A stretch of 51,202 nucleotides of DNA from Woeseiaceae bacterium (GCA_041609735.1 JBFIQH010000001.1:1-51202); one strand, 5' to 3'. Counted from the first letter of the stretch, positions 3,630 to 51,202 are shown. Numbers and translations: made by a program. The notes: generated by a model not told the origin, from the sequence alone.

Positions 3630-3861
3630 CGGACGAGTGTAGGTGGAATCGCCGCAACCCGCAAAAGCCGGGTGTCGTCGCGCGGCGTATTTGTCTATAC
3701 TCTGCCGAAACGGCGTTCGGCGTCAGTCGAAATCCAAGACCGTTTGCTTGACCGATTTGAAAATCGCATTACTCGCCAGGTACCGAGCACTGCCAGCCCG
3801 CTGACAGCGTTCGATTGCGAATCCATTGATCATCGGGGCACGATCCCTTAAGGAAGAAACC

Positions 3862-5598
3862 ATGCCACTTACAGTACTTCGTCGGGCCGGCGCGCTCGTT
3901 GTCTTGTCATTCATCAGTCTCGTTGCCTGCAAGGAAGGTGGCTCCACGGACGATTTCGCCGCCGAGGACGACCTGCTGCGATTCGTGCCGGCAGATACGC
4001 CGTACCTGTTTGCGACCGGGGCGCCGCTGCCGGACGACCTGCTCGACAAGTTCGAGCCGCGCGTCGACAAGGTCTTGCAGTCGTACCAGATCGTCGTTCG
4101 GGAGGTAGCCCGTTCCGCGATGGCCAAGAACGCCGACACGAAGGATCCGGCTGAGCTCGCGCGCATGTCCGCAATCGTAGATGAGCTTACAACGCTCTTG
4201 TCAATCGATGGCATGCGTTCGGCAGGGTTCGAGCGGGATTCGAGTGTGGTTTTCTTCGGTAACGGATTGCTGCCCGTCATGCGTATTTCGCTCAGCGATC
4301 CGAAGCTGTTCGACGCGGCGATTGCGCGGATCGAGGCGGCTGCGGATGCATCAATGGACATCGGTGAAATCGACGGCAAGCCGTATCGATACGTTGGCGA
4401 CGACGAAGGTAGCCTCGTCATTGCGACGCTCGAGGACAACGCAGTGTTTGCGTTCGTACCGGGCAACTTCGGCGATGCCGAAAAACGTGAGCTGCTGGGG
4501 CTGACGCTGCCGGCCAAGAATATCGCGACGACCACCATCCTGTCGGACATTGCAAGCACTTACGACTTTACCGCTCATTACATCGGATTCGTCGACACGC
4601 AACGTATAGCATCCGCCTTTGTCGACGGCCCTACCGGACTCGACGTGGCGTTGTTCGACGCCATGGACGGTGAAACCCCAGATTTGTCGGCGGTCTGCAA
4701 GCAGGAAATGCGCGAGGTCGCCGGCATCATGCCGCGTCTGGTTTTCGGCTACGACGAGGTCAGCGAGGAGGCGATGAGCGGCAGCTTCGTTTTCGAATTG
4801 CGCCAGGACATCGCGAAAGGACTGATGCCGATTTCGGCTCTGGTGCCGGGCCTCGGTGTCGACGCGGGCGGACTCCTGTCGATGGGCTTTAGCTTCAATC
4901 TCCTCGAGATTCGCAATTTTTACGAAGGCCGGCTGGACGCGATGGAGAACGACCCTTACGAATGCGAGTATTTTGCCGAGCTGCAGGCGGGCGTCGCGAA
5001 AGGTCGCGAGATACTGAACCAGCCGGTACCACCGTTCGTGTACAGCATGCGTGGTTTCAACGCGATCGTCGACGATATCGGCGATTTCGACCTGGCCAGC
5101 AATCAGCCGCCGGAGGACATCGATGCGAGCCTGGTGTTTGCGATGGACGACGCGCAGACGATGGTTGCGATGGGCGCCATGTTCAGCCCGGAGCTGGCGA
5201 ACCTGAACCTGCAGCCGGATGGCAAGGCCGTGCTGATCGATGTCGCACAGGTCAGGGCGACCGGCAAGGATGTGTATGCAGCGATGATCGAGGATGCGCT
5301 TGCTATTTCTATTGGCGCGAATGCCGAGAGCCGGGTGGCGTCCGTTTTGACTGCACGATCGGCCGAGCCGCCGCCGGTGTTCAGCATGACGATGGATGCG
5401 GGTCGTTATTACTCGCTGATCGGCGAGACGATGGTGCTCGAGCAGGACGAGGAGGCCGCCGAGCTGTCGCTCGAGGCCCGCGAAGCGCTGCGCGATGCGA
5501 TGCTCGCCATCGGCGAGCTGTATGATCGCATGGCTGTCGATCTGCGATTCACCGCGAATGGCGCCGAGTTCGATTCGCGCGTCACGCTGAAAGACTGA
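3862..5598 (+). CDS. hypothetical lipoprotein (acidic, Ala-rich, ~578 aa)
   Basis: ORF 3826..5598. Start moved to ATG 3862, which has AAGGAAG about 8 nt upstream. N-terminus MPLTVLRRAGALVVLSFISLVAC is a signal peptide with lipobox L-V-A-C. I recognise no family. Confidence 0.7.
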   Translation: MPLTVLRRAGALVVLSFISLVACKEGGSTDDFAAEDDLLRFVPADTPYLFATGAPLPDDLLDKFEPRVDKVLQSYQIVVREVARSAMAKNADTKDPAELARMSAIVDELTTLLSIDGMRSAGFERDSSVVFFGNGLLPVMRISLSDPKLFDAAIARIEAAADASMDIGEIDGKPYRYVGDDEGSLVIATLEDNAVFAFVPGNFGDAEKRELLGLTLPAKNIATTTILSDIASTYDFTAHYIGFVDTQRIASAFVDGPTGLDVALFDAMDGETPDLSAVCKQEMREVAGIMPRLVFGYDEVSEEAMSGSFVFELRQDIAKGLMPISALVPGLGVDAGGLLSMGFSFNLLEIRNFYEGRLDAMENDPYECEYFAELQAGVAKGREILNQPVPPFVYSMRGFNAIVDDIGDFDLASNQPPEDIDASLVFAMDDAQTMVAMGAMFSPELANLNLQPDGKAVLIDVAQVRATGKDVYAAMIEDALAISIGANAESRVASVLTARSAEPPPVFSMTMDAGRYYSLIGETMVLEQDEEAAELSLEAREALRDAMLAIGELYDRMAVDLRFTANGAEFDSRVTLKD

Positions 5599-5607
5599 GG
5601 GGGCCAA

Positions 5608-6153
5608 ATGTCTAAGACAAAGATCGCCAGCCTGCTTCTGCTGGTTTCGGCAGCGGCGCTGGCGGATGACAATGCCGCTGCGGTCGTCGATTCGCTGCAT
5701 GTCGAGTCATCGGAGGTCAAAGCGGCAGGGCAGGTTCGACCGGTCGGCGGAATAACATCCTCCGGCCAGCCGGACGAGCGCGCGCTGCAAGTTTATGCGG
5801 ACAGCGGTTACCGCGCGGTCATCGACCTGCGAGGTGCTGCGGAATCGCGCGGGCTCGACGAAGCATCGGTCGTTGAAAGCCTCGGCATGTCCTACGTGCC
5901 GTTCCCGATCAGCGGCGCCGAGGCGATCAATTTTGACAATGCGGCGAAGCTGACGGCGCTGATCGAGGCACAGGACGGCCCGGTGCTCGTCCACTGCGGT
6001 AGCGGCAATCGCGTGGGCGCGCTGCTGGCACTCGCCAAGGCGCTGGATGGCGCGGATGCCGAACAGGCGATAGCGGCCGGCCGGGAAGGCGGTTTGAGCC
6101 GGCTGGAGCCGGTCGTTCGTGAACGTCTCGCCGAGCGCGAGAAAAACGAGTAA
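5608..6153 (+). CDS. exported DUF442/TIGR01244-like (phosphatase or sulfur-transferase-like) protein
   Basis: Signal peptide MSKTKIASLLLLVSAAALA. Motif GPVLVHCGSGNRVGAL (Cys-x4-Arg P-loop) as in the DUF442 family. GGGGG Shine-Dalgarno upstream. 9-nt gap after the lipoprotein gene suggests one operon. Confidence 0.7.
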   Translation: MSKTKIASLLLLVSAAALADDNAAAVVDSLHVESSEVKAAGQVRPVGGITSSGQPDERALQVYADSGYRAVIDLRGAAESRGLDEASVVESLGMSYVPFPISGAEAINFDNAAKLTALIEAQDGPVLVHCGSGNRVGALLALAKALDGADAEQAIAAGREGGLSRLEPVVRERLAEREKNE

Positions 6154-6201: not shown

Positions 6202-6565
6202 TGGTGGAGGTGGCGAGAATCGAACTCGCGTCCGCAAGCCCTCTGCTTTGAGCTCTACATGCTTATACCGTCTTTAGATCTCGCTGGCGGCTACCCGACG
6301 GGCAGGGAAGACCGACAGCCAGTTCGGTAAGGATTTAACGGATCCGGCCCCGAACGAGCCATCACCGCGGTTCCGTGTGGATGACTCCCGGGACCCGAAC
6401 GCACGGACACGTATCGGCCGGAAGGCACTAACGCTGGTTTTTAAGCAGCGAGTGCGTAGTTGTCGTCGTTGGCAACTATAGGTTTTACAGGTGGATTTAC
6501 GAGGTGATCTGTCCCTCGGCATGCACTCAAAGGTTCGCGACCCACGTCGAAGCCATGTCACCCCC
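6202..6565 (-). ncRNA. ssrA: tmRNA (SsrA)
   Basis: The minus strand reads 5' GGGGGTGACATGGCTTCGACGTGGGTCGCGAACC ... GCGAGTTCGATTCTCGCCACCTCCACCA 3' (tRNA-Ala-like acceptor/T-arm with CCA). The tag reading frame at 6441..6473 encodes ANDDNYALAA followed by TAA. It lies immediately downstream of smpB. Confidence 0.95.
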
Positions 6566-7293: not shown

Positions 7294-8664
7294 ATGCTGA
7301 GTCATCAGTCGCAGGACGGGGGCAAACGGACCTCTTTGCACGGCCACTGGTCGTCGCGCATGGCCTTCATCTTCGCGGTGACCGGATCCGCGGTGGGCCT
7401 TGGCAATATCTGGAAATTTCCGTATGTGGCCGGCGAGAACGGCGGTGGCGCGTTCGTGCTGGTTTATTTGTTCTGCGTCGTGCTGATCGGCATGCCGGTC
7501 ATGATGTCCGAAATCCTCATCGGCCGGCGCGGAAGACGCAACCCGATCGCGACGATGGCGCTGCTCGGGCAGGAGGAGGGGCACTCGCGTCACTGGCAGT
7601 GGGTCGGCGCTCTCGGGGTCATTGGCGGTGTACTGATTCTTTCGTATTACAGTGTCATCGCGGGCTGGGTGCTTGCCTACGTGGTCAAGAGCGCCAGCGG
7701 CGTATTCGCCGGTGCGTCTCCCGAACAGGTCTCAGAAATATTTGCCGAGTACTCGGGTAGCTGGACGGCGGTCGCCATCAGCCACACGGCGTTCATGGCC
7801 GTGACGATTTTCGTCGTGGCGCGTGGCGTCGAACGCGGCCTCGAGCAGGCGGTGCGACTGATGGTACCCGCATTGCTGCTGTTGTTGCTGTTGCTGCTGG
7901 GCTACGCAATGAGTTCGGGGTATTTCATGGCCGGGGTGGAATTCATGTTCACCCCCGATTGGGAGAAGCTGACCTGGAACAGTGTCCTGGTCGCGCTGGG
8001 GCAGGCGTTTTTCACGCTCAGTATCGGCATGGGCGCGATCATGGCCTACGGTGCCTACCTGCCCGAGGAAACCTCGATTACCAGTGCGTCTGGCGCTGTG
8101 GTCGCAGCCGATACCGGGATCGCGATGCTTGCGGGCCTCGTCATTTTTCCCCTGGTGTTCGCTAACGGGCTAAGCCCGGATGAAGGCGCGGGCCTCGTGT
8201 TCGAAACGCTGCCGCTGGCCTTCGGCAAGATGGCAGCCGGGACCGTGTTTGCGACGGTGTTTTTCGTCTTGCTGTCGTTTGCGGCGTGGACCTCGGCCAT
8301 CGGCCTCGTCGAGCCGTCGGTCGCGTGGCTCGTCGAGCAGTTTGGCCGCACCCGCGCGCAGGCGACCATCATCATCGGCATCATTATCTGGGGTGTCGGA
8401 CTCGGTTCGGTACTGTCATTCAACGTGTTGGCCGACTTCATCGTCTTCGATCGAACGATATTCGGTAACGTCGACTATCTGACCAGCAACATCATGCTGC
8501 CGCTGGGCGGCCTGTTGATTACGGTCTTCGCCGGCTGGGTCATGTGCCGCAATTCATCGGCCGACGAGCTTGGCGGGGCGGGCGCCGCCTACAAGGCCTG
8601 GCGCGTGCTCGCGCGCTTCCTGGCACCGATTGGTATCCTGATCATTCTCGTCAACAATATCTGA
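7294..8664 (+). CDS. sodium-dependent transporter, neurotransmitter:sodium symporter (SNF) family
   Basis: ORF 7162..8664. Start moved to ATG 7294 (MLSHQSQ...). Motif FAVTGSAVGLGNIWKFPY and a multi-TM hydrophobic profile. Confidence 0.85.
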   Translation: MLSHQSQDGGKRTSLHGHWSSRMAFIFAVTGSAVGLGNIWKFPYVAGENGGGAFVLVYLFCVVLIGMPVMMSEILIGRRGRRNPIATMALLGQEEGHSRHWQWVGALGVIGGVLILSYYSVIAGWVLAYVVKSASGVFAGASPEQVSEIFAEYSGSWTAVAISHTAFMAVTIFVVARGVERGLEQAVRLMVPALLLLLLLLLGYAMSSGYFMAGVEFMFTPDWEKLTWNSVLVALGQAFFTLSIGMGAIMAYGAYLPEETSITSASGAVVAADTGIAMLAGLVIFPLVFANGLSPDEGAGLVFETLPLAFGKMAAGTVFATVFFVLLSFAAWTSAIGLVEPSVAWLVEQFGRTRAQATIIIGIIIWGVGLGSVLSFNVLADFIVFDRTIFGNVDYLTSNIMLPLGGLLITVFAGWVMCRNSSADELGGAGAAYKAWRVLARFLAPIGILIILVNNI

Positions 8665-8698
8665 CGCCGCTCGGCGTCGCCGGGGCCAGACACGCACC

Positions 8699-39224: not shown

Positions 39225-39830
39225 ATGCTGTTCCAGTCCATACTTTTTTACGTTTTCTCGCTGGTGCTGTTCGGCGCCGCGCTCGGTGTCGTGTTCGCGC
39301 GCAACCCGGTGCATTCGGTCATGTTCCTCGTGCTGACGTTTTTCCAGAGTGCGATGCTGTGGCTGATGGCAGAAGCGGAGTTTCTCGCGATCGTGCTGGT
39401 GCTCGTTTACGTCGGCGCCGTCATGGTGTTGTTCCTGTTCGTCATCATGATGCTCGAGGTTGAGATCGAAGCGGTCAAGGCGGGCCTCGTCCGCTATGCG
39501 CCGCTCGCGATCGTCATTTCCCTGTTAATGGCGTTCGAACTCATCCAGCTTATCTGGTTGCGCGGCCCCGAAGGTCAGTTTGGTACTGCATTCGTGCCCA
39601 ACCCGGAGAACTACGACAACACGAAGGCGCTGGGGGCGGTGCTGTACACCGAACATGTCTACGCGTTTGAAATAGCCGCCGTCGTGCTGCTGCTGGCTAT
39701 CGTTGCGGCCATTACGCTGACGATGCGCAAGCGCCCGGGCCTCAAGGTACAGGACATTGCCAAGCAGGTCGCGGTGCGCGCCAAGGATCGCGTGCGCCTC
39801 GTCAAGATGGATGCGGAGAAGAAACAGTGA
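39225..39830 (+). CDS. nuoJ: NADH-quinone oxidoreductase subunit J
   Basis: 201-aa hydrophobic protein at the nuoJ position. [31 protein letters not shown]. Confidence 0.93.
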
Positions 39831-40132
39831 TCGGCCTGCAGCACTACCTGACGCTGTCCGCAATGCTGTTCGTGCTGAGCATCGCCGGGATCATCATCAA
39901 CCGTCGCAACCTGATTCTGCTCCTGATGTGTATCGAGCTGATGCTGCTGGCGGTCAACTTCAACTTTATCGCGTTCTCGCGCTACCTCGGCGACGAGACC
40001 GGGCAGGTGTTCGTGTTCTTTATTCTAACCGTTGCAGCTGCCGAGGCAGCGATCGGCCTCGCGATACTTGTCGTCCTGTTCCGCAACCGGCGTTCGATCA
40101 ACGTTCAAGAACTGAACACGATGAAAGGGTAG
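39827..40132 (+). CDS. nuoK: NADH-quinone oxidoreductase subunit K
   Basis: GTG start overlapping the nuoJ stop. [33 protein letters not shown]. Confidence 0.95.
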
Positions 40133-40181
40133 TCATGGCGCGACGTTCTGACAAACCTGGTGAGGCGAGGCGATACTGAGC

Positions 40182-42149
40182 ATGTACAACTTTTACCTCG
40201 TCATCGTTCTCGCACCGCTACTTGCCGCGATCGTGGCCGGCCTGTTCGGCCGGCAAATCGGCCGCTCCGGGGCACACACGGTCACGATTTTCGGTGTCGG
40301 TATTTCAACGGTGCTGTCGTTCTACGTGCTGTACCAGATGGTCTGGGGCGGCGCCACGTCGGAAAACATCAGCGTCTACACCTGGGCCGTGACCGACGGC
40401 CTGCACATGGAGGTCGGCTTCCTCGTTGACCGACTGACGGCGCTGATGATGGCCGTGGTGACGTTCGTCTCGCTGATGGTGCACGTTTACACAATCGGGT
40501 ACATGCACGAGGATCCGGGTTACCAGCGCTTCTTCAGCTACATCTCGCTGTTCACGTTCTCGATGCTGATGCTGGTCATGTCGAATAACTTCCTGCAGCT
40601 GTTCTTCGGTTGGGAAGCGGTCGGCCTGGTTTCGTACTTGCTGATCGGCTTCTGGTTCAAGCGCGAAACGGCCATCTTCGCGAACCTGAAGGCGTTCCTC
40701 GTCAATCGCGTCGGCGACTTCGGCTTCATCCTCGGCATCGCCGGCATCGTGCTGTTCACGAATTCGCTGGACTATGCCGAAGTGTTTTCACAGGCGGATT
40801 CGATCGCAAACCAGAGCATCAGCGTCATCGGTTCGCCGTGGAACGCGATGACGGTCATCTGCATCCTGTTGTTCATCGGTGCCATGGGCAAGTCCGCGCA
40901 GGCGCCGCTGCACGTCTGGCTGCCGGATTCGATGGAAGGCCCGACGCCGATCTCGGCACTGATCCATGCTGCAACGATGGTCACCGCCGGCATCTTCATG
41001 GTGGCACGCATGTCGCCGCTGTTCGAACTGAGCATCTCGGCACTGGCCGTCGTTATCGTCATCGGCGCAATCACGGCGTTCTTCATGGGGCTGCTCGGCA
41101 TTGTGCAAAACGACATAAAGCGCGTCGTTGCCTATTCGACCTTGTCACAGCTCGGCTATATGACCGTCGCGCTCGGCGCGTCGGCCTACAGCGCGGCGAT
41201 CTTCCACTTGATGACGCACGCATTCTTCAAGGCGCTGCTGTTCCTGGCCGCAGGCTCGGTCATTATCGCGATGCACCACGAGCAGGACATCCGCAAGATG
41301 GGCGGCATTCGCAAGTACATGCCAATCACCTACTGGACGTCGCTGATCGGGTCGCTGGCCCTGATCGGCTTTCCGGGCTCGGCCGGCTTTTTCTCGAAGG
41401 ACCTGCTGATCGAGGCGGTGGCGCATTCGCACTGGCGCGAGACGGACGCGCTGGTCTACTGGATTGCGTACCTGAGCGTCCTTCTCGGCGTGTTCGTAAC
41501 GGCGCTGTACTCGTTCCGGATGTTTTTCCTCGTATTCCACGGCAAGGAGCGCATGGATGCGGAGACCCGTTCGCACCTGCATGAGACGCCGTGGGTCGTT
41601 ACTGTGCCGCTGGTCCTGCTGGCGATCCCGTCGGCCGTCATAGGCTGGTATACGGTGTCGCCGGTGTTGTTCGGCGACTATTTCGGTGTGGCGATCGCTG
41701 TCGATTCGACGCGCGATGTGCTGGCCGACATGGGCAGGGACTGGCATGGCAGCCTCGGCCTCGTGACCCATGCCATCGTGACGCCCGTCTTCTGGCTGGC
41801 CTTCGCGGGCGTCCTGACCGCCTGGTTCCTGTACCTGAAGCGGCCCGACATCCCCGACGAGATACAAAAGAAGGTATCCGGGCTCTACAACCTGCTCGAC
41901 CGCAAGTACTACTTCGATGACCTGTGGATCAAGGGTTTCGGCGGGGGCGGGCGCCGGCTCGGCAGCTTCCTGTGGCACAAGGGCGACGAGCTGGTCATCG
42001 ACGGCGCGATCGTCAACGGCACGGCTAATTCTGTGGCGCGGCTCGCCGCCGTCATGCGCCACCTGCAGACCGGCTACCTCTACACCTATGCCTTCGCAAT
42101 GATCATCGGCCTGACCGTTTTGCTCGGCTGGCTGATCTGGCTGGATTAG
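40182..42149 (+). CDS. nuoL: NADH-quinone oxidoreductase subunit L
   Basis: FFGWEAVGLVSYLLIGFWF, GKSAQAPLHVWLPDSMEGPTPISALIHAATMV. Confidence 0.97.
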   Translation: MYNFYLVIVLAPLLAAIVAGLFGRQIGRSGAHTVTIFGVGISTVLSFYVLYQMVWGGATSENISVYTWAVTDGLHMEVGFLVDRLTALMMAVVTFVSLMVHVYTIGYMHEDPGYQRFFSYISLFTFSMLMLVMSNNFLQLFFGWEAVGLVSYLLIGFWFKRETAIFANLKAFLVNRVGDFGFILGIAGIVLFTNSLDYAEVFSQADSIANQSISVIGSPWNAMTVICILLFIGAMGKSAQAPLHVWLPDSMEGPTPISALIHAATMVTAGIFMVARMSPLFELSISALAVVIVIGAITAFFMGLLGIVQNDIKRVVAYSTLSQLGYMTVALGASAYSAAIFHLMTHAFFKALLFLAAGSVIIAMHHEQDIRKMGGIRKYMPITYWTSLIGSLALIGFPGSAGFFSKDLLIEAVAHSHWRETDALVYWIAYLSVLLGVFVTALYSFRMFFLVFHGKERMDAETRSHLHETPWVVTVPLVLLAIPSAVIGWYTVSPVLFGDYFGVAIAVDSTRDVLADMGRDWHGSLGLVTHAIVTPVFWLAFAGVLTAWFLYLKRPDIPDEIQKKVSGLYNLLDRKYYFDDLWIKGFGGGGRRLGSFLWHKGDELVIDGAIVNGTANSVARLAAVMRHLQTGYLYTYAFAMIIGLTVLLGWLIWLD

Positions 42150-42155
42150 GCGACG

Positions 42156-43676
42156 ATGGGTCTGTCAACGCACCTTCTTTCGATACTGATCTGGCTGCCG
42201 GTCGTCGGCGGCCTGGCGGTGCTCGCCATCGGCGACGAGGGCGATGCGGCGTCGGCGCGTGCCGGCGCGATGCGCATGACGACGCTGGTCACGTCGTTGC
42301 TGACGCTGGCGCTGTCGATCCTGCTTTATCAGCGCTTCGACGCGGCAGCTACGACGATGCAGTTCGTCGAACGCTTTCCCTGGGTCGACGCCCTCGACGC
42401 CTGGTATTACCTCGGCGTCGACGGAATTTCGGTACCGCTGATACTGCTGACGGCCTTCATCACGCCGCTCGTCGTCATCGCCGGCTGGGACAGCATTCGC
42501 ACCCGACCGGCGCAGTACTTTGCCGCGTTCCTGATCCTCGAGGGCCTGATGATCGGCGTCTTCAGCGCGCTCGACGGCCTGCTGTTCTACGTCTTCTGGG
42601 AATTCATGCTGGTGCCGATGTTCCTGATCATCGGCGTCTGGGGTGGGGACCGGCGCATATACGCAACCCTGAAGTTCTTCCTGTACACGTTCCTCGGCTC
42701 CGTGCTGATGCTGGTGGCGTTCATCTACCTGTACCTGCAGACCGGCAGTTACGACCTCATTGGCTGGATGGACGCGCCACTCGGCATGACGGCCCAGAAG
42801 CTGATCTTCATTGCGTTCCTGCTGGCGTTTGCCGTCAAAGTGCCGATGTGGCCCGTACACACGTGGCTGCCCGATGCGCACGTGGAGGCCCCGACCGGCG
42901 GTTCCGTTATTCTGGCCGCGATCATGCTGAAGATGGGCGGCTACGGATTCATCCGCCTGTCTTTGCCGATCGTGCCCGACGGCAGCGAGTACTTCGCCGG
43001 CCTGATGATCGCGCTGTCGCTGATCGCCGTCGTCTACATCGGCCTCGTCGCGCTGATGCAAAAGGACATGAAGAAGCTGATCGCGTACTCGTCCATTGCC
43101 CACATGGGCTTCGTGACGCTGGGCTTTTTCCTGCTGTACGAGATCGACGGCCCGACCGGCGCCGTGCTCGGCCTGTCCGGCGGCATGGTACAAATGGTGT
43201 CGCACGGCCTGATCTCCGGCGCAATGTTCCTGTGCGTCGGCGTGCTGTATGACCGTGTGCACAGCCGTATGATCGCCAGTTACGGCGGCGTCGCCAACAC
43301 GATGCCGACCTACGCGGCGTTCTTCGTATTGTTCGCGATGGCCAATGCGGGGTTACCCGGCACCTCCGGCTTCGTCGGTGAGTTCATGGTCATCATCGCG
43401 AGCTTCAAGGCGAATTTCTGGTTTGCGTTCTTAGCTGCGACGACCCTGGTCCTCGGTGCCGCGTACACGCTGTGGATGGTCAAGCGCGTCATCTATGGCG
43501 ACATCGCCAATGACGACGTGGCAGAACTCAGTGACCTGAATCGCCGCGAGTTTATTGTTCTCGGCATCCTGGCGCTGTCCGTGCTGTTGGTCGGGCTGTG
43601 GCCGGCGCCTCTGGTCGACATGATGAACGTCACGATTGAACAACTGGTTGAGAGGGTAGGGCTTTCGAAGCTCTGA
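42156..43676 (+). CDS. nuoM: NADH-quinone oxidoreductase subunit M
   Basis: VKVPMWPVHTWLPDAHVEAPTGGSVILA. Confidence 0.97.
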   Translation: MGLSTHLLSILIWLPVVGGLAVLAIGDEGDAASARAGAMRMTTLVTSLLTLALSILLYQRFDAAATTMQFVERFPWVDALDAWYYLGVDGISVPLILLTAFITPLVVIAGWDSIRTRPAQYFAAFLILEGLMIGVFSALDGLLFYVFWEFMLVPMFLIIGVWGGDRRIYATLKFFLYTFLGSVLMLVAFIYLYLQTGSYDLIGWMDAPLGMTAQKLIFIAFLLAFAVKVPMWPVHTWLPDAHVEAPTGGSVILAAIMLKMGGYGFIRLSLPIVPDGSEYFAGLMIALSLIAVVYIGLVALMQKDMKKLIAYSSIAHMGFVTLGFFLLYEIDGPTGAVLGLSGGMVQMVSHGLISGAMFLCVGVLYDRVHSRMIASYGGVANTMPTYAAFFVLFAMANAGLPGTSGFVGEFMVIIASFKANFWFAFLAATTLVLGAAYTLWMVKRVIYGDIANDDVAELSDLNRREFIVLGILALSVLLVGLWPAPLVDMMNVTIEQLVERVGLSKL

Positions 43677-43687
43677 CGGATTCCACT

Positions 43688-45127
43688 ATGCGACTTTCCG
43701 ATTTACTAGCGGCAGCACCGGAGATGACCCTCCTGGGTATGATTTGCGTCGTTCTGGTCGCCGACCTGTTCGTCGACAATAACAAGCGCGCGATCACGTT
43801 CTGGCTGTCGATCGCGGCATTGCTGTTGACGGCCTGGGCACTGGTCGAGACGGCTCCGGTTGGCCGCGCCGTGATCTTCGACGGCAGTTACGTCAGCGAC
43901 GCGCTGTCGCAAGTGCTCAAACTCGGTGTCGTGCTGTTCGTCGGCATTGCGTTTTTCTATTCGCGTGACTACTTGCGCGCCAACGACCTGAACAAGGGTG
44001 AGTTTTACCTGCTGGGGCTGTTCGGCCTGCTTGGCATGATGGTCATGATTTCCGCGAACAGCCTGCTGACGATGTACATGGGGCTGGAGACGCTCGCGCT
44101 GTCACAGTATGCGCTCGTCGCGATCGACCGCACGAACGTGACCTCGGCCGAAGCTGCGATGAAGTATTTTGTGCTCGGCGCGATTGCCTCTGGGTGCCTG
44201 TTGTACGGCATCTCGTGGGTTTACGGCGCCACCGGCACGATCCAGTTCCACGAGATCGCCAACGTCGTCGCGACTCAGCCCGAGGTCAACGCGCTGCCGT
44301 TGTGGTTTGGCCTTGCCTTCCTCGTCGTCGGCATCGCGTTCAAGTTCGGCGCCGTGCCGTTTCACATGTGGGTGCCGGACGTCTACCAGGGCGCGCGCTC
44401 GTCAGTCACGCTGTACGTCGGATCGGCGCCAAAGCTCGCCGCGCTGGCGCTGACACTACGGGTCCTCGTCGACGGGCTCGGCGGCCTGCACGAACTGTGG
44501 TCGGACATGGTCATGATCATCGCGGTACTGTCGCTGCTGCTCGGCAATTTCATCGCTATCGTGCAGTCGAACATCAAGCGCATGCTGGCCTATTCGACGA
44601 TCGGGCATGTCGGCTTCATCCTGCTGGCCGTGTTTACCGGCACCGAGCAGGGCTATGCTGCAGCGCTGTTCTACACGCTGACCTACGTCGTCGCCGCGGC
44701 GGGCGCATTCGGCATGATCATCCTGTTGAGCCGGCGCGGCTACGAAGCGGAAAACCTGTCCGACTTCAAGGGACTGAACGCGCGCAGCCCTTGGTACGCG
44801 GTGCTGATGATGTTCCTGATGTTCAGCATGGCGGGCATTCCGCCGTTCATCGGCTTCTTCGGCAAGCTGAATGCAATCAACGCGGTCCTCGCGATCGGCT
44901 ACACCGAGCTGGCCGTCATCATGGTGCTGGCCTCGGTCGTCGGCGCCTACTACTACCTGCGCGTCATCTGGTACATGTATTTCGAGGACCCGGCCGATCA
45001 GGCCGTCCTGGCAACCAGTACCGACACCCGCCTCGTCATGAGCCTGAACGGCGTTGCCGTGCTGGCGCTGGGCCTGCTGCCCGGCTGGCTTTGGACCTTG
45101 TGCCTGCAGGTGCTCGCCGCGCGCTGA
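43688..45127 (+). CDS. nuoN: NADH-quinone oxidoreductase subunit N
   Basis: FKFGAVPFHMWVPDVYQGA, IKRMLAYSTIGHVGF. Confidence 0.96.
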   Translation: MRLSDLLAAAPEMTLLGMICVVLVADLFVDNNKRAITFWLSIAALLLTAWALVETAPVGRAVIFDGSYVSDALSQVLKLGVVLFVGIAFFYSRDYLRANDLNKGEFYLLGLFGLLGMMVMISANSLLTMYMGLETLALSQYALVAIDRTNVTSAEAAMKYFVLGAIASGCLLYGISWVYGATGTIQFHEIANVVATQPEVNALPLWFGLAFLVVGIAFKFGAVPFHMWVPDVYQGARSSVTLYVGSAPKLAALALTLRVLVDGLGGLHELWSDMVMIIAVLSLLLGNFIAIVQSNIKRMLAYSTIGHVGFILLAVFTGTEQGYAAALFYTLTYVVAAAGAFGMIILLSRRGYEAENLSDFKGLNARSPWYAVLMMFLMFSMAGIPPFIGFFGKLNAINAVLAIGYTELAVIMVLASVVGAYYYLRVIWYMYFEDPADQAVLATSTDTRLVMSLNGVAVLALGLLPGWLWTLCLQVLAAR

Positions 45128-45212
45128 TTCCGCGACCTGCGGAGTTGACATAATGCCGAAATTTCGGGCCGGAATGGCTTAAGAACCGCATTCCGCCGCC
45201 GATCTAACAGGC

Positions 45213-46451
45213 ATGAGTGTTGCGGAAGATCTCAGCGCAGAGCTGCAGCTGCCTGATGAGGCGGCAAGCAGTGCCCCGGTATCCGTGCTGTTGATCGACG
45301 ACGATCCGGCATCCACGCACCTTTGTGCCCGCTACCTCGGGCGCGAAAAGACACACGGCTACGATCTTGTATCGACGGATACCGCGGCGGACGGCGTGGC
45401 CGCAGCCGTTGGCGGTAAATTCGACATCCTGCTCATCGACTATTACCTGCCGGGCTCCAGCGCAATCGAGGTCATCGAGAAGATTCAAGAGCGCCTCGGC
45501 GAAAACGCGCCGCCGGCGATTGTTTTAACCGCCGACGATAGCGCAACGACGGCGACAAAGGCGATGCACGCCGGCGCATCCGATTTCCTCGCGAAAAAAG
45601 CGCTGTCGCCGGAATCACTGTCGCGGTCGATCATGAATGCAGTCGACAAGAGCAAGCTGAAGCAGACGGCAAGGGAACGGCGACAGCAGATTATCGAGAT
45701 GAACGAGCGGCTGGTTCGCAAGGGCCAGGAGCTGCAGCGCTTTTACCAGAGCGTCTCGCACGAGGTGAAAACGCCGCTCGCTGCGGCACGCGAGTTCATC
45801 GCATTGACGCTTGACGGTGTAGCAGGACCGGTCAACGACAAGCAGGTCGAATTTTTGACGTATGCCATCGATTCCTGTGATCAGATCACTGCGCATTTCA
45901 ATGACCTGCTCGAAATGACGCGCCTGGATACCGGCAAGGTTCGGCTGGATCTCGAGTGGGCCGAGTTTGATGCCGTCATCGCACGCTGCCTGGCCTCCGC
46001 GGCTGCAGCTGTCGAGGCTCGCCAGCTGTATGTCCAGCTGCAGAAGCAGGATTCGCTGCCGAAAGTTCGATTTGATATGAATCGCATCGTGCAGGTGGTC
46101 TCGAACCTGCTGAACAACGCGGTCAAGTTCAGTCCTGTCGAAGGCAAGATCGTCATCAATGTGGGACAGACCGAAAACGGTCGTCGCATGCGGATCAGTG
46201 TCGCCGACGAAGGCTGCGGCATACACGAAGACGAACTGCCGCAGGTATTCGAGCGTCTATACCAGGCCAGGGTGGAAGGGGAACAGCAAACAGAAGCGGG
46301 ACTGGGCCTTGGCCTTAGTATCGCCAGGGAAATCGTGCTGCTGCACGGTGGGTCTATTTGGGCAGAGAGTTTTCTCGGTCGCGGGAGTACGTTTTACATC
46401 GAACTTCCCGTCGAAGGGCCTCCGCCATCTCTCACGGAGGTTAAGCAATGA
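45213..46451 (+). CDS. cytoplasmic hybrid protein: N-terminal receiver (REC) fused to a histidine kinase core (HisKA + HATPase_c)
   Basis: REC: LLIDDD, phospho-acceptor Asp in ILLIDYYLPG (D76), VLTADD, FLAKK. Coiled linker, then H-box SVSHEVKTPL (His codon 45759-45761). N box NLLNNAVKF, G1 DEGCGI, F box VFERLYQ, G2 GLGLGLSIA. No TM segment. Confidence 0.88.
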   Translation: MSVAEDLSAELQLPDEAASSAPVSVLLIDDDPASTHLCARYLGREKTHGYDLVSTDTAADGVAAAVGGKFDILLIDYYLPGSSAIEVIEKIQERLGENAPPAIVLTADDSATTATKAMHAGASDFLAKKALSPESLSRSIMNAVDKSKLKQTARERRQQIIEMNERLVRKGQELQRFYQSVSHEVKTPLAAAREFIALTLDGVAGPVNDKQVEFLTYAIDSCDQITAHFNDLLEMTRLDTGKVRLDLEWAEFDAVIARCLASAAAAVEARQLYVQLQKQDSLPKVRFDMNRIVQVVSNLLNNAVKFSPVEGKIVINVGQTENGRRMRISVADEGCGIHEDELPQVFERLYQARVEGEQQTEAGLGLGLSIAREIVLLHGGSIWAESFLGRGSTFYIELPVEGPPPSLTEVKQ

Positions 46452-46855
46452 AAACGGTACTCATGATCGAGGACGACGCAAAGGTCAGCCTGGCGCTGGG
46501 CATTCGGCTCAAGTCGATGGGCTACGAGGTCACAACGGCAGCCGATGCTGTCTCGGCAGTCAGCCAGGCGAGAAAATGTGCTCCCGACGTCATCCTGATT
46601 GATATCAACCTGCCCGGTGGCGACGGGTTCGTTGTCGCTCAGCGCCTGAAGACGCTGGTGCAGACGTCTGCGACCCCAATGATATTTATCACCGCCAGCA
46701 AGAAAGCGGGCTTGAAGGAACGCGCGAAGGAACTGGGCGCAGTCGCGTTTCTCGAGAAGCCGTTTACCGCTACCGAAATGGCCGATGCCATCGAAATGTC
46801 GCTCTACTCAATGAGTACAGAGGAAGGGCAATCCAGCGAAGCGATGATCGGCTAG
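46448..46855 (+). CDS. stand-alone CheY-like response regulator receiver (no output domain)
   Basis: 135 aa. MIEDD, VILIDINLPGGDG (D52), IFITAS, LEKPF. ATGA overlap with the preceding kinase gene. Confidence 0.88.
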   Translation: MKTVLMIEDDAKVSLALGIRLKSMGYEVTTAADAVSAVSQARKCAPDVILIDINLPGGDGFVVAQRLKTLVQTSATPMIFITASKKAGLKERAKELGAVAFLEKPFTATEMADAIEMSLYSMSTEEGQSSEAMIG

Positions 46856-46867
46856 GGAGCGGCGGTG

Positions 46868-47167
46868 ATGAGTGCCGAACCTTCCGACGTCACCAGGGCG
46901 GCGTCGAGGAAGCGTTTTCACGATCTGCGTGCGCCGCTGATAACGATGCAGGGCTTCGGTGATGAACTGGCCAAGGCCTTCGCACGCCTCGCGGAGCTGG
47001 TCGAGGATCATCAGCAAGCGTTACCTGACGACTACCTTGCGTTGACCAGGGAGGTCCTCGAGCGCGACATCAATCCTTGCCTTGGTTATATGCGTTCGTC
47101 GGTCCGTAAACTCGGTGACGCGCTCGATGACCTTGCATCCGACGCGACGTCGGATCCGCGGCGATGA
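46868..47167 (+). CDS. small stand-alone HisKA/DHp-like protein with H-box and no ATPase domain
   Basis: Translation ...SRKRFHDLRAPLITMQGFGDELAKAF... (His codon 46919-46921) matches the HisKA H-box. It is followed by about 70 aa of helix-like sequence and then stops. GGGAG lies 7 nt upstream of ATG 46868 (GTG 46865 is an alternative start). The stop overlaps the start of the CHASE kinase gene (ATGA). Confidence 0.7.
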   Translation: MSAEPSDVTRAASRKRFHDLRAPLITMQGFGDELAKAFARLAELVEDHQQALPDDYLALTREVLERDINPCLGYMRSSVRKLGDALDDLASDATSDPRR

Positions 47168-48981
47168 CAACGTCGGCCGAAAAGCGCTACTCGCGCAAGA
47201 TCGACGAGGAACGTCGCGCACTCGGCGTCGCGGGGCGCCTGCATTGGGTGCACTGGGCGATCGTTATCCTGTCCGCCGGCGCAACTGTCGCCGCGTGGAA
47301 TTTTTCGCGCGGCCAGGTCCAGGAAAAGCAGCAGATTCAGTTCGATCGTGAGGCGCAACAGGTCGTCGAGCTCGTCGCGGAACGCATGAAGAAATACGAA
47401 GATGCGTTGTGGAGCGGCGTGGCGGCCGTGCATGCACTGGAGGGGCAGCTCGACTACGACGAGTGGCGAGCGTTTGCTGCGGCTCTGCAAATCGATACCA
47501 AGTACCCGGGCATCAACGGCATCGGCGTCATCGTACCCGTCGCGCGTCCCGTCCGCGAGACGTTCGAACGCGCGCAGTACAGCTGGCTGCCGGGGTTCAG
47601 GATATACCCGGAGCATGACGAGCCGGGACTGATGCCGATACGGTTTATCGAACCAATCGAGCCGAACCTAAAAGCGGTGGGTCTCGACATGGCCCATGAA
47701 GAAAACCGCTACCGGTCTGCACTGAATGCCCGCCGCACCGGGACGGCGCAAATAACCGGCCCGATCGTTCTGGTTCAGGACGAAGGCAGTACTCCGGGCT
47801 TTCTGTTCTACGCGCCGTTTTATTCCGGCGACGCTGATACCGAATCGGATCGGGTCAGCAACTTTGCGGGCCTTGTCTACGCGCCTTTTGTCGTGCGCAA
47901 GCTGATGGCCGGCACCCTGCAGCAGGAAAAGCGCCGCGTCGGCATCCAGCTGACGGACGGGGAGATCGTAATTTACGGCGACGAGGAAGAATCATCCGCC
48001 GGGCGCAAGTCGCAAGTCTCTTTCTCGCGCACCGAGGCCGTGCCGATGTACGGCAGAACCTGGACGTTCGATATCTGGGCAAAAGACTCTTTTATCGACG
48101 CGACGGCGAACTCACAGCCGGCCCTGATTTTAATCGGCGGCATGACGATCGATGCACTGCTGCTGACGATATTCATTACGCTGTCGCGCACGAACCGGCG
48201 CTCGGTCAAGTTCGCAGAGCGCATGAATCGAGCGCTGATCCGCAAGACCGACGAACTCGCTGAGATGAACGACGATCTCGAGAGCTTTGCCTACATCGCG
48301 TCACATGATCTGAAGACGCCATTGCGAGGCATTACGGATCTGGTCGAGTATGTGCGTGAAGACCTGCGGCCGTACCTCGAGAGCAGTGATGCGAATCCGG
48401 ATATCGAGTACAACCTCGACCGGATCACCCAGCAGACCGATCGAATGGAGCGCCTGATTCGCGGGGTTCTCGACTACTCCGGCGTTGGCAAGCGAGAGGA
48501 ATCCGTCGAGCTCGTCAATCTCGACGCGCTGATAAAGACGCTGGCGAACGAACTCGATGTCGAACCAGGGCAGCTGCGGCTCGACGGCGACATGCGGGAG
48601 TTCCCGACGTATCGGGTACGCCTCGAGCAGGTGCTCGGTAATCTCGTCGGCAATGCATTCAAGTATCACCACGACAGAGACAGCGCCAGCGTTGTTGTTG
48701 CCGCACACGCCGACCGCGACCGTGTCTCGTTCAGTGTCACCGACAACGGCCCGGGCATCGATCCGCGGTTTCACGGCCGGATTTTTGATGTATTTCAGAC
48801 GCTTCAGCCGCGCGACCAGATCGAAAGCACCGGTGTCGGGCTCTCGATCGTCAAGAAAGCCGTCGAGTCGGTTGGCAGCAAAGTCCGAATCAAGTCCACG
48901 CCTGGCGAGGGCACGTCGTTCTCGTTCGAGTGGCCAATCGTGCGGGAGACAGCAGAGCCCCGGGCGGCAGAGGTGGTTTAG
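47164..48981 (+). CDS. membrane sensor histidine kinase with periplasmic CHASE domain
   Basis: TM1 about aa 26-46, TM2 about aa 319-341. Between them, YPGINGIGVIVPV...PIRFIEPIEPNLKAVGLDMAHEENRYRSALNARRTGTAQITGPIVLVQDEGSTPGFLFYAPFY matches the CHASE pattern. H-box IASHDLKTPLRGI (His codon 48304-48306). N box GNLVGNAFKY, G1 DNGPGI, F box IFDVFQT, G2 GVGLSIVKK. Confidence 0.88.
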   Translation: MTTSAEKRYSRKIDEERRALGVAGRLHWVHWAIVILSAGATVAAWNFSRGQVQEKQQIQFDREAQQVVELVAERMKKYEDALWSGVAAVHALEGQLDYDEWRAFAAALQIDTKYPGINGIGVIVPVARPVRETFERAQYSWLPGFRIYPEHDEPGLMPIRFIEPIEPNLKAVGLDMAHEENRYRSALNARRTGTAQITGPIVLVQDEGSTPGFLFYAPFYSGDADTESDRVSNFAGLVYAPFVVRKLMAGTLQQEKRRVGIQLTDGEIVIYGDEEESSAGRKSQVSFSRTEAVPMYGRTWTFDIWAKDSFIDATANSQPALILIGGMTIDALLLTIFITLSRTNRRSVKFAERMNRALIRKTDELAEMNDDLESFAYIASHDLKTPLRGITDLVEYVREDLRPYLESSDANPDIEYNLDRITQQTDRMERLIRGVLDYSGVGKREESVELVNLDALIKTLANELDVEPGQLRLDGDMREFPTYRVRLEQVLGNLVGNAFKYHHDRDSASVVVAAHADRDRVSFSVTDNGPGIDPRFHGRIFDVFQTLQPRDQIESTGVGLSIVKKAVESVGSKVRIKSTPGEGTSFSFEWPIVRETAEPRAAEVV

Positions 48982-49416
48982 ATGGCAATCAAGACAGTAA
49001 GTATTCTGCTCGTAGAAGACAACGACCTGGACGCAGAGAAGCTGCAACGCATACTCGATCGTTTGGGCGACAAGCGTCCGATTACCCGCGCCCGAGACGG
49101 CATCGAGGCGCTGGAACTGCTGCGCGATCCCGAACGACAGCCGAGGCCGCCGTTCGTCATCATCCTCGATCTCAACATGCCGCGCATGAATGGCCAGGAA
49201 TTCCTTGCCGAACTGCGCGCAGATTCGTCATTGAAAGGCCTGCCGGTAGTCGTGCTGACGACGTCGGATCGCCGCGCGGACATCGAGCAGGCCTATTCGA
49301 ACCAGGTCAGCGGTTACCTGACGAAACCGCTCGACCTAGAGGACACGGCCGCGATGCTGCAGTCGATCTGCGAATTCTGGGGTCGCTGCGAGTTTCCCAA
49401 CGCTGGCGTCGTCTGA
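48982..49416 (+). CDS. stand-alone response regulator receiver (Rcp1-like single-domain REC)
   Basis: ILLVEDNDLD, VIILDLNMPRMNG (D63), VVVLTTS, YLTKP. ATG immediately follows the kinase stop (TAGATG). Confidence 0.88.
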   Translation: MAIKTVSILLVEDNDLDAEKLQRILDRLGDKRPITRARDGIEALELLRDPERQPRPPFVIILDLNMPRMNGQEFLAELRADSSLKGLPVVVLTTSDRRADIEQAYSNQVSGYLTKPLDLEDTAAMLQSICEFWGRCEFPNAGVV

Positions 49417-49793
49417 TGACGGCGGAGGGATCTGAGCAGGTTAGCCTCGTCTGTGTCGACGATGATTCGCTAATGCTCGAATTTATCGAGCGCCGCCTCA
49501 GGGACCGACCCGGACATTTGAAGTGCTTTTCTGAGCCAAACGCAGCTATCGATTTTCTGGCCAAAAACGAGGTAAGAACGATTCTGGTCGACCAGCGTAT
49601 GCCGACGATGAATGGCATCGAATTTCTGAAGATTCTGGCCGCCCGCGGCTCCAATGGCGCCGCTCGCAAGATCCTGTTCTCAGCGATCGCGCCGGACCCC
49701 GATACCTGCGACGCTGCCGGCGCGCTGGGGGCAGAAACGCTCGAAAAGGACCGGATCCGGAACCGCGATACACTGCTCGAAATGCTGAACTGA
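49416..49793 (+). CDS. stand-alone receiver-domain protein (third free REC)
   Basis: C-terminal 125 codons of ORF 48930..49793, starting at ATG 49416 (TGATG overlap with the previous gene). VCVDDD, ILVDQRMPTMNG (D59), ILFSA, LEKD. Confidence 0.75.
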   Translation: MTAEGSEQVSLVCVDDDSLMLEFIERRLRDRPGHLKCFSEPNAAIDFLAKNEVRTILVDQRMPTMNGIEFLKILAARGSNGAARKILFSAIAPDPDTCDAAGALGAETLEKDRIRNRDTLLEMLN

Positions 49794-49831
49794 GCGCTGG
49801 ATGTCGTGATTGGCAAGGCCTCGCGCCGGGG

Positions 49832-49860
49832 TTGTCATTTTACGGGCACGTCAGTATAGT
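49832..49860 (+). promoter_or_regulatory. sigma70 promoter for tRNA-fMet
   Basis: TTGTCA (49832-49837), 17-nt spacer, TATAGT (49855-49860), then a GC-rich discriminator TCCCACCC. The tRNA starts 14 nt after the -10. Confidence 0.7.
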
Positions 49861-49874
49861 TCCCACCCTGCCGA

Positions 49875-49951
49875 TGCGGGGTGGAGCAGTCTGGCAGCTC
49901 GTCGGGCTCATAACCCGAAGGTCGCAGGTTCAAATCCTGCCCCCGCTACCA
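49875..49951 (+). tRNA. metY: initiator tRNA-fMet (anticodon CAT)
   Basis: Near-identical in layout to E. coli tRNA-fMet as recalled. A11:U24, three G:C pairs closing the anticodon stem (TCGGG/CCCGA), loop CTCATAA (CAT at 49909-49911), T-arm GCAGGTTCAAATCCTGC, 3' ACCA encoded. Positions 1:72 are unpaired (U:U). Confidence 0.93.
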
Positions 49952-50208: not shown

Positions 50209-51202
50209 TTACCTCGGTTCAGGCTCGCGATCAATACGCGAAAAGATCGCGCCGTGCGGAATGCTGGCGCCGGTTTTACCATGCGGCCATTGTTCCCGCG
50301 TCATGTCCAGGCCGGGATACGCCGAACCTGGGCTTCGCAGATCTTTAATAATTGTGAGTTTGCCGTTTGTCGGATTTAGCTGCAGCAGCACGACTCTGCC
50401 AGCGAGCCAGCCATTCCTGCCAGTGAGGGCGATGCGGTTGCCACCCAACTCACCCGAAACCCAGTGCGGTCTAACGGGTCCATCGAGAACCAGCTCATCG
50501 ACCTCCCTCGGATGATACGGATCCGATATATCCAGCACGACAAGAGAACTGGCGCCCTCGTTTGTTTGTATCCAGTATTTTCCGATGCGCCAGGGCACGC
50601 TGCATTGATCACCGGCGTCGAAAGATTCGAACGGAAATGATTTCACCAGGGTTGCTTGCGGATTTTCGGTGTCAATGTCCGAAAGAACATACAATCCGCA
50701 GCGAAACGTCGTAACGATGACGGTCTTACCATCATCCAACAAGCGCGCTTCAGCCACGTCCAAATTTTCGTCGCCCCGTGGGCCGGGCGGTAACAACACC
50801 GTGTGCAGGAGTTTCAGGTCGGACATTCTCCATATCTGCACCGAGCGACCTTCCATCTTTGCCCACATGTCGCCGGTTGTTGTCACGACACGGTCCATCG
50901 CTGCAATCGGCGTAACGCTGTATGGCCGGAGCTCCGGGTCCGTTGGGTCCGCGGCGTCGCTGCCGCGAATATAACCACCGGTCGGGTCCAGCTCGACCAG
51001 GCCACCGGCTTCGGAGTCCTTCTCGCCCTTATTGTGAAACGTTGCCAGTACCGTGCCGGTAGGGGTGCGCTCAAAGCTGTGAGGGTAGGTATAAGGCCCG
51101 GCACGATCGAATGCGGATGCCACCACGGGCCGAAGCGGATTCGCCACATTGATGACAAAAGACTTGCCGGTCATGAAACCATTGGCAAAGAACATATCGC
51201 CT
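50209..51202 (-). CDS. beta-propeller-like protein of uncertain family (LVIVD-repeat / selenium-binding-protein-like), 5' end beyond window
   Basis: The frame stays open past the listed ATG 51195 to the window edge. SSLVVLDISDPYHPREV resembles an LVIVD repeat. The layout loosely recalls SBP56-type propellers. No firm family call is possible by eye. Confidence 0.5.
   Translation of the reverse strand, partial: GDMFFANGFMTGKSFVINVANPLRPVVASAFDRAGPYTYPHSFERTPTGTVLATFHNKGEKDSEAGGLVELDPTGGYIRGSDAADPTDPELRPYSVTPIAAMDRVVTTTGDMWAKMEGRSVQIWRMSDLKLLHTVLLPPGPRGDENLDVAEARLLDDGKTVIVTTFRCGLYVLSDIDTENPQATLVKSFPFESFDAGDQCSVPWRIGKYWIQTNEGASSLVVLDISDPYHPREVDELVLDGPVRPHWVSGELGGNRIALTGRNGWLAGRVVLLQLNPTNGKLTIIKDLRSPGSAYPGLDMTREQWPHGKTGASIPHGAIFSRIDREPEPR

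Follow-up and report, generated by a model that had tools for sequence, protein, structure and literature searches.

The DNA examined here is a stretch of 51,202 nucleotides (nt) from a Woeseiaceae bacterium (GCA_041609735.1, JBFIQH010000001.1:1-51202), referred to below at its full length as the window, and our subject is a small gene that lies within a group of two-component signalling genes. An earlier note, made from the sequence alone, had proposed that this open reading frame (ORF) encodes a free-standing histidine-kinase DHp domain lacking a catalytic domain and coupled to a CHASE-domain kinase. Translation of positions 46868-47167 (+) gave exactly the 99-amino-acid (aa) sequence quoted there, and the two H-boxes offered for comparison, SHDLKTPL in the gene that follows and SHEVKTPL in the second gene upstream, were both found. 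Four receivers had also been counted in the neighbourhood and Pfam confirmed them, one forming the N-terminus of a 412-aa receiver-kinase and the other three being the single-domain receivers REC1, REC2 and REC3 (Table 1). Because every intergenic junction is either an overlap or a gap of no more than 12 nt, the six genes form one tight signalling operon, in which the small protein accompanies two kinases and four receiver domains.

The expression signals described previously for the small ORF, its own GGGAG ribosome-binding site and a stop codon overlapping the start of the CHASE kinase, were both present. The TGA stop (47165-47167) shares two bases with the ATG of the kinase gene (47164-47166), which gives the sequence ATGA at 47164-47167. 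A second in-frame start candidate, GTG, is found at 46865, but since all homologues begin with MSAEP the ATG at 46868 is likely to be the start. No HATPase_c or other domain was found 3' of the hairpin by translation or with Pfam, and the small protein ends 10 residues past helix 2. On the upstream side, the gap between nuoN and the receiver-kinase gene is 85 nt (45128-45212) and no promoter-like site was found in it; the nuo operon and the signalling operon may share a transcript. The genes upstream of the operon differ in relatives, as for example in the loci L001 and L002, where DUF3124 is found.

Table 1. Genes and sequence features of the signalling operon and its immediate surroundings (coordinates of the window).
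Feature	Position	Strand	Basis or remark
nuoJ-N	39225-45127		upstream of receiver-kinase
Receiver-kinase, REC-HisKA-HATPase_c, 412 aa, H-box SHEVKTPL	45213..46451	+	Pfam domains
REC1, single-domain receiver, 135 aa	46448..46855	+	Pfam Response_reg; start overlaps receiver-kinase stop by 4 nt
GGGAG ribosome-binding site	46855..46859	+	direct sequence reading; 8 nt 5' of ATG
Small ORF, 99 aa, putative stand-alone DHp (HisKA-like) helical hairpin	46868..47167	+	translation, homologues, dN/dS, AF2, family profile
H-box and helix 1 core, F17-HDLRAPLITMQGFGDEL-34	46916..46969	+	conservation among 67 members
His18 codon	46919-46921	+	
Helix 2 motif, D67-INPCL-72	47066..47083	+	family alignment
Cys71 codon	47078-47080	+	
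CHASE-HisKA-HATPase_c sensor kinase, 605 aa, H-box SHDLKTPL	47164..48981	+	Pfam domains
REC2, single-domain receiver, 144 aa	48982..49416	+	Pfam; first base directly after CHASE kinase stop
REC3, single-domain receiver, 125 aa, final operon gene	49416..49793	+	Pfam and NCBIfam receiver matches; 1-nt overlap with REC2 stop
Terminator-like hairpin	49817-49833	+	downstream end of operon
tRNA-Met	49875-49951	+	after terminator-like hairpin

Among 5.8 billion proteins searched, the small protein had eight close homologues, 56-78% identical to it and all from metagenomes. The earlier note had asked whether orthologues always have a length of about 100 aa, and each of these eight is 99 aa long. Their contigs keep the order seen in the window, namely receiver-kinase, REC1, small ORF, 605-aa CHASE kinase, REC2 and REC3, with an orthologue of the 125-aa REC3 called in L005 and L006. 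Pairwise ratios of nonsynonymous to synonymous substitution rates (dN/dS) for the small ORF were 0.16-0.27, which shows clear purifying selection in this frame; the corresponding values for the neighbouring genes were 0.03-0.10, a stronger constraint. An exhaustive search of 1.84 billion representatives with a profile of the family matched 892 proteins at E<=1e-3. Within the 150 best of these, some 60 were again small proteins, of 83-119 aa and without HATPase_c, and the others were long proteins matched over query residues 17-90. A length that does not vary among close homologues, the dN/dS values and the breadth of the family together rule out a chance ORF on the wrong strand, and equally the possibility raised previously that the homologues are full-length kinases and the ORF a fragment left behind by truncation.

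L007 and L009 appeared to lack the receiver-kinase, but both are sub-stretches of L006 (99.9% identity) and the absence is an artefact of contig ends. In L006 itself, the receiver-kinase orthologue (405-1718) was called as a 437-aa protein with a garbled C-terminus that overlaps a shortened REC1 call, and a frameshift or assembly error at the 3' end of the kinase gene is likely. A scan of GTDB with the close family gave no match, and with a wider alignment it gave 80 loci, 78 of which were full-length kinases. The only true small homologue among the GTDB species representatives was L010, from a Woeseiaceae metagenome-assembled genome (MAG), at 42% identity. L036, from a Desulfomonilaceae MAG (7854-8691), was rejected as a family member: it contains a 163-aa ORF with HisKA only, above threshold, followed by a 127-aa ORF without a Pfam match, and looks like a kinase gene that has been disrupted. 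The 89-aa protein P0040 was also rejected, and excluded from the family alignment, being above threshold for HisKA, lacking the Cys and resembling a kinase fragment. Where family members carry a taxonomic name, it places them among the marine Gammaproteobacteria (Woeseiaceae, Granulosicoccus).

Scanned directly against Pfam and NCBIfam, the small ORF gave no significant match. As the direct HisKA test falls below threshold, the case for DHp homology rests on the family profile, which supports the original reading of a free-standing hairpin of HisKA type with a phospho-acceptor histidine and no catalytic domain. HisKA was the top Pfam family for 14 of the 19 members scanned (five of nine close and nine of ten distant ones), the best close member reaching E=0.025 and the distant small members 6e-4 to 0.055. 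Run against 1.8 billion proteins, the profile matched genuine HisKA+HATPase_c kinases over query residues 17-90 with E values down to 5e-10, and these matches coincide with the Pfam HisKA domain, just before HATPase_c. In P0053, for instance, the profile match covers 271-345 and HisKA 263-346, and in P0055 the two cover 316-387 and 307-394. An alignment with hhalign of the 67 small proteins to 84 kinase DHp regions gave a probability of 99.8% over 88 columns and E 6.5e-29, a value inflated by the selection of the kinases with the same profile. The best match of the family profile to a PDB sequence was 5ukv, an isolated kinase DHp domain, at E=0.08, with H-box and helix 2 aligning in order. The structure prediction that had been suggested, made with AlphaFold2 (AF2), gave the expected two-helix hairpin with a mean confidence (pLDDT) of 84: one long helix spans residues 5-19/21-47 and is kinked at residue 20, next to His18, and the other spans 54-92. 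Hydrophobic stripes at the a/d and flanking positions of the sequence are compatible with a bundle, though they do not prove one.

The kinases most similar to the small family (for example P0053, P0055 and P0060) have the H-box SHDLR[SA]PLVN.xGF and are homologous to it over the whole DHp domain, sharing the long hairpin, an LP motif at the turn and D-[IV]-x-x-x-L in helix 2. At H+4 (four positions after the histidine) most of them have Ser or Ala, and few have Thr. They differ in carrying sensor domains and, after the match, a HATPase_c region about 165-175 aa long, both of which the small family lacks. Judging from these profile comparisons, the small protein is a complete DHp hairpin descended from this HisKA subtype, with its unusually long hairpin. 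Neither neighbouring kinase belongs to the subtype: with a nine-sequence alignment of the small family, hhalign aligned only the 9-14 residues of the H-box to their DHp domains, at probabilities of 1-6%, and the hidden Markov model (HMM) of the family had no other match within the 51-kb window, these two kinases included.

Residue conservation was counted over 67 small proteins, 22-77% identical to the window protein, and compared with 86 related kinases. The H-box motif of the window protein is HDLRAP (residues 18-23), with the histidine, an acidic residue and a proline at H+5. Among the small proteins His18 was found in 65, Asp19 in 66 and Pro23 in 63 of the 67, and all three residues in 86/86 kinases. 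The H+4 position, Ala22 in the window protein, was Gly in 37 and Ala in 25 of the small proteins, Ser in two and Thr or Asn in none; in the kinases it was Ser (43), Ala (32) or Thr (8 of 86). Thr or Asn at H+4 is needed for the phosphatase activity of HisKA proteins, and an acid at H+1 for their kinase activity (Willett and Kirby, PMC3510030). The small family thus keeps the phospho-acceptor residues yet lacks the phosphatase residue, and the absence of Thr and Asn at H+4 suits a carrier that holds a phosphoryl group and passes it on.

Four further residues, G29, E33, D67 and C71, are each conserved in at least 90% of the small family. Position 71 is Cys in 61/67 small proteins and in only 6/86 kinases, the others having Ala or Ser. 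In helix 2, the column of A85 is Arg in 43/67 small proteins, in contrast to Leu, Met or Ile in 75/86 kinases; an Arg in place of a hydrophobic residue here fits long evolution without a catalytic (CA) domain. Cys71 and this Arg distinguish the small family from the related kinases and point to a long separate evolution with no CA domain. In the hairpin, Cys71, part of the helix 2 motif D-x-x-P-C-L, is placed at the level of G29/F30, below His18, and it could be a redox-sensitive residue or an inter-subunit contact.

The genes found around distant members of the family show which partners are constant. A REC-HisKA-HATPase kinase orthologous to that of the window was adjacent in every context examined except the orphan L096, usually together with REC1. 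BLASTP identified these receiver-kinase orthologues in L010, L090, L093, L094, L097 and L098 with 38-48% identity over the full length and an identical SHEVKTPL H-box. In distant loci it also showed the receiver encoded immediately before the small gene to be the REC1 orthologue, with 55-57% identity. Receiver-kinase and REC1 thus flank the small gene even where the small protein itself is only 25-42% identical, while the sensor kinase varies. The order in L010 is receiver-kinase, small ORF, CHASE kinase, REC, REC, with a stop/start overlap TAATG between the small ORF and the CHASE kinase gene. In the Granulosicoccus-type loci L090-L092 (25-30% identity) it is receiver-kinase, REC, small ORF, REC, a divergent gene for a solute-binding protein, HAMP kinase and REC. 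A PAS kinase lies 5' of the receiver-kinase in L094, L097 has receiver-kinase, REC, small ORF and REC without any sensor kinase, and L093 has the receiver-kinase and the small ORF only. The receiver-kinase family, characterised by an N-terminal receiver, the lack of a sensor domain and the H-box VSHEVKTPL, was always paired with a small DHp protein (window, L010, L090-L094, L097, L098).

From these arrangements the constant unit is the receiver-kinase, in most cases REC1, and the small DHp protein, usually with one more receiver. Because HAMP or PAS kinases, or nothing, stand in place of the CHASE kinase in distant loci, the CHASE kinase with REC2 would be one of several interchangeable input modules. 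The coupling of the small gene to the CHASE kinase, as claimed originally, therefore holds for the window, its close relatives and L010 but not family-wide, where that kinase is replaced or absent. REC2 is probably the direct partner of the CHASE kinase; its pattern ILLVEDN..D ... LDLNMP ... LTTS ... KP is one that we take to be typical of Rcp1-like receivers paired with phytochrome-type kinases. Receivers of the REC2 type are also joined directly to the small domain in two fusion proteins, P0039 (238 aa) and P0090 (203 aa), with 37-47% identity to REC2 by BLASTP (E 3e-25 and 8e-21). The gene for P0039 (L098, 7001-7717) is divergent and beside an orthologous receiver-kinase. In P0090 the receiver appears truncated after beta3, at about 90 residues.

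We propose, with a rough probability of 0.55, that the small protein is a dimeric histidine phosphotransferase consisting of a DHp domain only, which would perform a relay step like that of Spo0B or ChpT without the pseudo-catalytic domain. Histidine phosphotransfer is suggested because the His-Asp-x-x-x-Pro motif is kept while the phosphatase residue and the ATPase are absent, because the small gene sits between single-domain receivers, in an order (kinase, receiver, small protein, receiver) that mirrors H1-D1-H2-D2, and because the small domain is sometimes fused to a receiver. That the protein dimerises, that His18 is phosphorylated, and in which order and direction the phosphoryl group travels are inferences. 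One hairpin would pair with a second copy to form a four-helix bundle and act as the H2 step of a multi-step phosphorelay, in which His18 would take a phosphoryl group from one phosphorylated single-domain receiver and hand it to another receiver. The core of receiver-kinase, REC1 and small protein would be fed by interchangeable sensor kinases, in this operon the periplasmic CHASE kinase with REC2. Perhaps a periplasmic signal activates the CHASE kinase, which would phosphorylate REC2; the phosphoryl group would then pass to His18 of the small protein and from there to the receiver of the receiver-kinase, or to REC3, and the receiver-kinase would in turn phosphorylate REC1. An equally possible flow would run from the receiver-kinase (H1) through REC1 (D1) and His18 (H2) to REC3 (D2).

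Several observations weigh against this proposal. The HMMER comparison with PF00512 that the earlier note had put forward gave the window protein only 12.9 bits (E=0.12), compared with a gathering score of 26.9. Foldseek searches of the PDB with the predicted model returned unspecific helical hairpins (ROP, EsxA, designed bundles), all at E>0.3, with kinases appearing from rank 13 at E>1, although such a comparison is uninformative where the fold is this simple. The small protein evolves faster than its neighbours, genomic context was readable for about a dozen family members, and L096 holds the small gene as an orphan, away from any two-component genes. Since every receiver in the operon is a single-domain protein, the sequence shows neither an output nor which way the phosphoryl groups flow. 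Finally, HisKA kinases need the residue corresponding to Asp19 for ATP-dependent autophosphorylation (PMC3510030), and its retention in the small protein would also be consistent with a CA domain acting on it in trans.

The earlier note had left three roles open for the protein, as a phosphotransferase, as a decoy that forms heterodimers with a kinase, or as a substrate phosphorylated in trans by a neighbouring CA domain, and the first of these fits best. The decoy belongs to a broader alternative, a non-catalytic regulator whose hairpin binds a receiver or a kinase DHp domain as decoy, anti-kinase or scaffold, without being phosphorylated. Small helical kinase inhibitors such as Sda exist, and a small helical hairpin that is translationally coupled to the CHASE kinase in the window and in L010, and that changes more quickly than the surrounding enzymes, could be another. 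We nevertheless consider this unlikely, as His18, Asp19 and Pro23 are near-invariant down to 22% identity, which is hard to explain without phospho-chemistry. Heterodimers are disfavoured as well, the DHp domains of the neighbours being of other subtypes with shorter hairpins, and a decoy for the CHASE kinase in particular is rejected because that kinase is no constant partner.

Phosphorylation in trans remains as a rival. Here a neighbouring kinase, for which the receiver-kinase is the most plausible candidate, would use its CA domain to phosphorylate His18 directly from ATP, and the small protein would serve as an extra, detachable phospho-donor for receivers. The near-invariant Asp19 (66/67) would be accounted for in this way, and a complete kinase is encoded beside the small gene in every context but one. 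However, both neighbouring kinases own an intact DHp domain with its histidine, and neither of these domains resembles the small family. In addition, the helix 2 position that is hydrophobic in the related kinases, presumably a contact with the CA domain, carries Arg or a polar residue in the small proteins, a change to be expected once the CA partner is lost, and the REC+DHp fusions point to receiver-to-histidine chemistry. We regard this alternative as improbable. A dedicated phosphatase, in which the free DHp domain docks on a phosphorylated receiver and speeds its dephosphorylation like the DHp domain of bifunctional HisKA kinases or Spo0E-type hairpins, is very improbable, since even though DHp is the phosphatase-competent part of HisKA kinases, several receivers are encoded nearby and such a role has been suggested for archaeal HisKA proteins without HATPase (PMC5847659), the Thr or Asn required at H+4 (PMC3510030) is absent in 67/67 members and replaced by Gly or Ala in 62/67.

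Among characterised systems, the nearest to the proposed phosphotransferase are Spo0B of Bacillus subtilis, which shuttles phosphate from Spo0F to Spo0A, and ChpT of Caulobacter crescentus, which shuttles it from CckA-Rec to CtrA/CpdR (PMC3433190, PMC9981736). Both have a DHp-type hairpin with an active histidine, dimerise into a four-helix bundle, and are separate proteins in phosphorelays that, like the operon of the window, are rich in single-domain receivers. They also keep a C-terminal CA-like alpha/beta domain (PMC3433190), whereas the window protein stops after helix 2 at 99 aa, and a PDB sequence search with the profile showed no significant similarity of the small family to either. 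HPt proteins (PF01627; Ypd1, ShpA, HptB) have the job proposed here, that of a histidine carrier between receivers in H1-D1-H2-D2, but are monomeric four-helix bundles with another histidine motif, in contrast to the two predicted helices of the window protein, and the small family had no match to PF01627 even at E<=10.

A published but unproven precedent for a phosphotransferase made of a helical hairpin of about 100 aa is the putative HmrB (CCNA_03325) of Caulobacter crescentus, a 108-aa alpha-helical hairpin encoded beside a hybrid kinase and proposed to be an 'atypical HPT' (PMC11481889). AF2-multimer predicts a dimeric four-helix bundle for HmrB, its role comes from genetics and modelling only, and it is reported to be restricted to Caulobacteraceae (PMC11481889). 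Compared by its published description only, HmrB has H50 and H74 as candidate histidines where the small family has an N-terminal H-box instead. Proteins listed as 'HisKA, no HATPase' or 'possible incomplete histidine kinase' also occur in censuses (P2CS; archaeal census PMC5847659) as uncharacterised proteins for which a role as phospho-acceptor, in phosphotransfer or as phosphatase has been suggested; these are mostly larger, archaeal, and combined with PAS, GAF or REC, unlike the bare hairpin of about 100 aa in a conserved bacterial operon. Neither Pfam nor NCBIfam holds a model for the small family, the sources that name its members call them 'hypothetical protein', and a full-text literature search found no description of it.

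In the current view, the histidine carrier of a phosphorelay is an HPt domain or else a pseudo-kinase (PMC9981736). Tentatively, and with a little less than even confidence, we suggest that the small family represents a third structural class of histidine phosphotransfer protein. This would be a bare dimerising DHp hairpin, forming a portable core with a receiver-activated kinase and REC1, into which CHASE kinases, HAMP kinases with a solute-binding protein, or PAS kinases could be plugged. Lying level with the surface on which a receiver is predicted to dock, the nearly invariant Cys71 may in addition make the relay redox-sensitive.

The window as a whole is a core chromosomal region containing recN, dnaK/dnaJ, carB, ftsH and nuo. 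A tmRNA gene is located at 6202-6565 (-) and encodes the tag peptide ANDDNYALAA, which we take to resemble the Escherichia coli tag and presumably fits a gammaproteobacterium. Downstream of the tRNA-Met gene, a 328-aa ORF (50209-51195, -) has no Pfam match and a very weak similarity to the NCBIfam methanethiol oxidase (E=0.003). Two long ORFs overlap on opposite strands, one of 449 aa at 4351-5700 (-) without a Pfam match and one of 590 aa at 3826-5598 (+).

The best 150 of the 892 profile matches hold about 60 clusters of the family at 50% identity, in which the His-Asp-Pro core is kept, the partner genes are fixed and the domain is sometimes fused to a receiver. Census practice sets 'HisKA without HATPase' proteins aside as incomplete kinases (PMC5847659). 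If the proposed phosphotransferase function is true, a DHp hairpin alone would suffice for phosphotransfer and would offer a minimal model for the recognition between DHp domains and receivers, as well as a compact part for synthetic phosphorelays. The operon, with its two kinases, three single-domain receivers and putative carrier, is cleanly delimited and therefore directly testable in vitro. Such a function would also alter the wiring that annotation assigns to orphan receiver-kinases and single-domain receivers.

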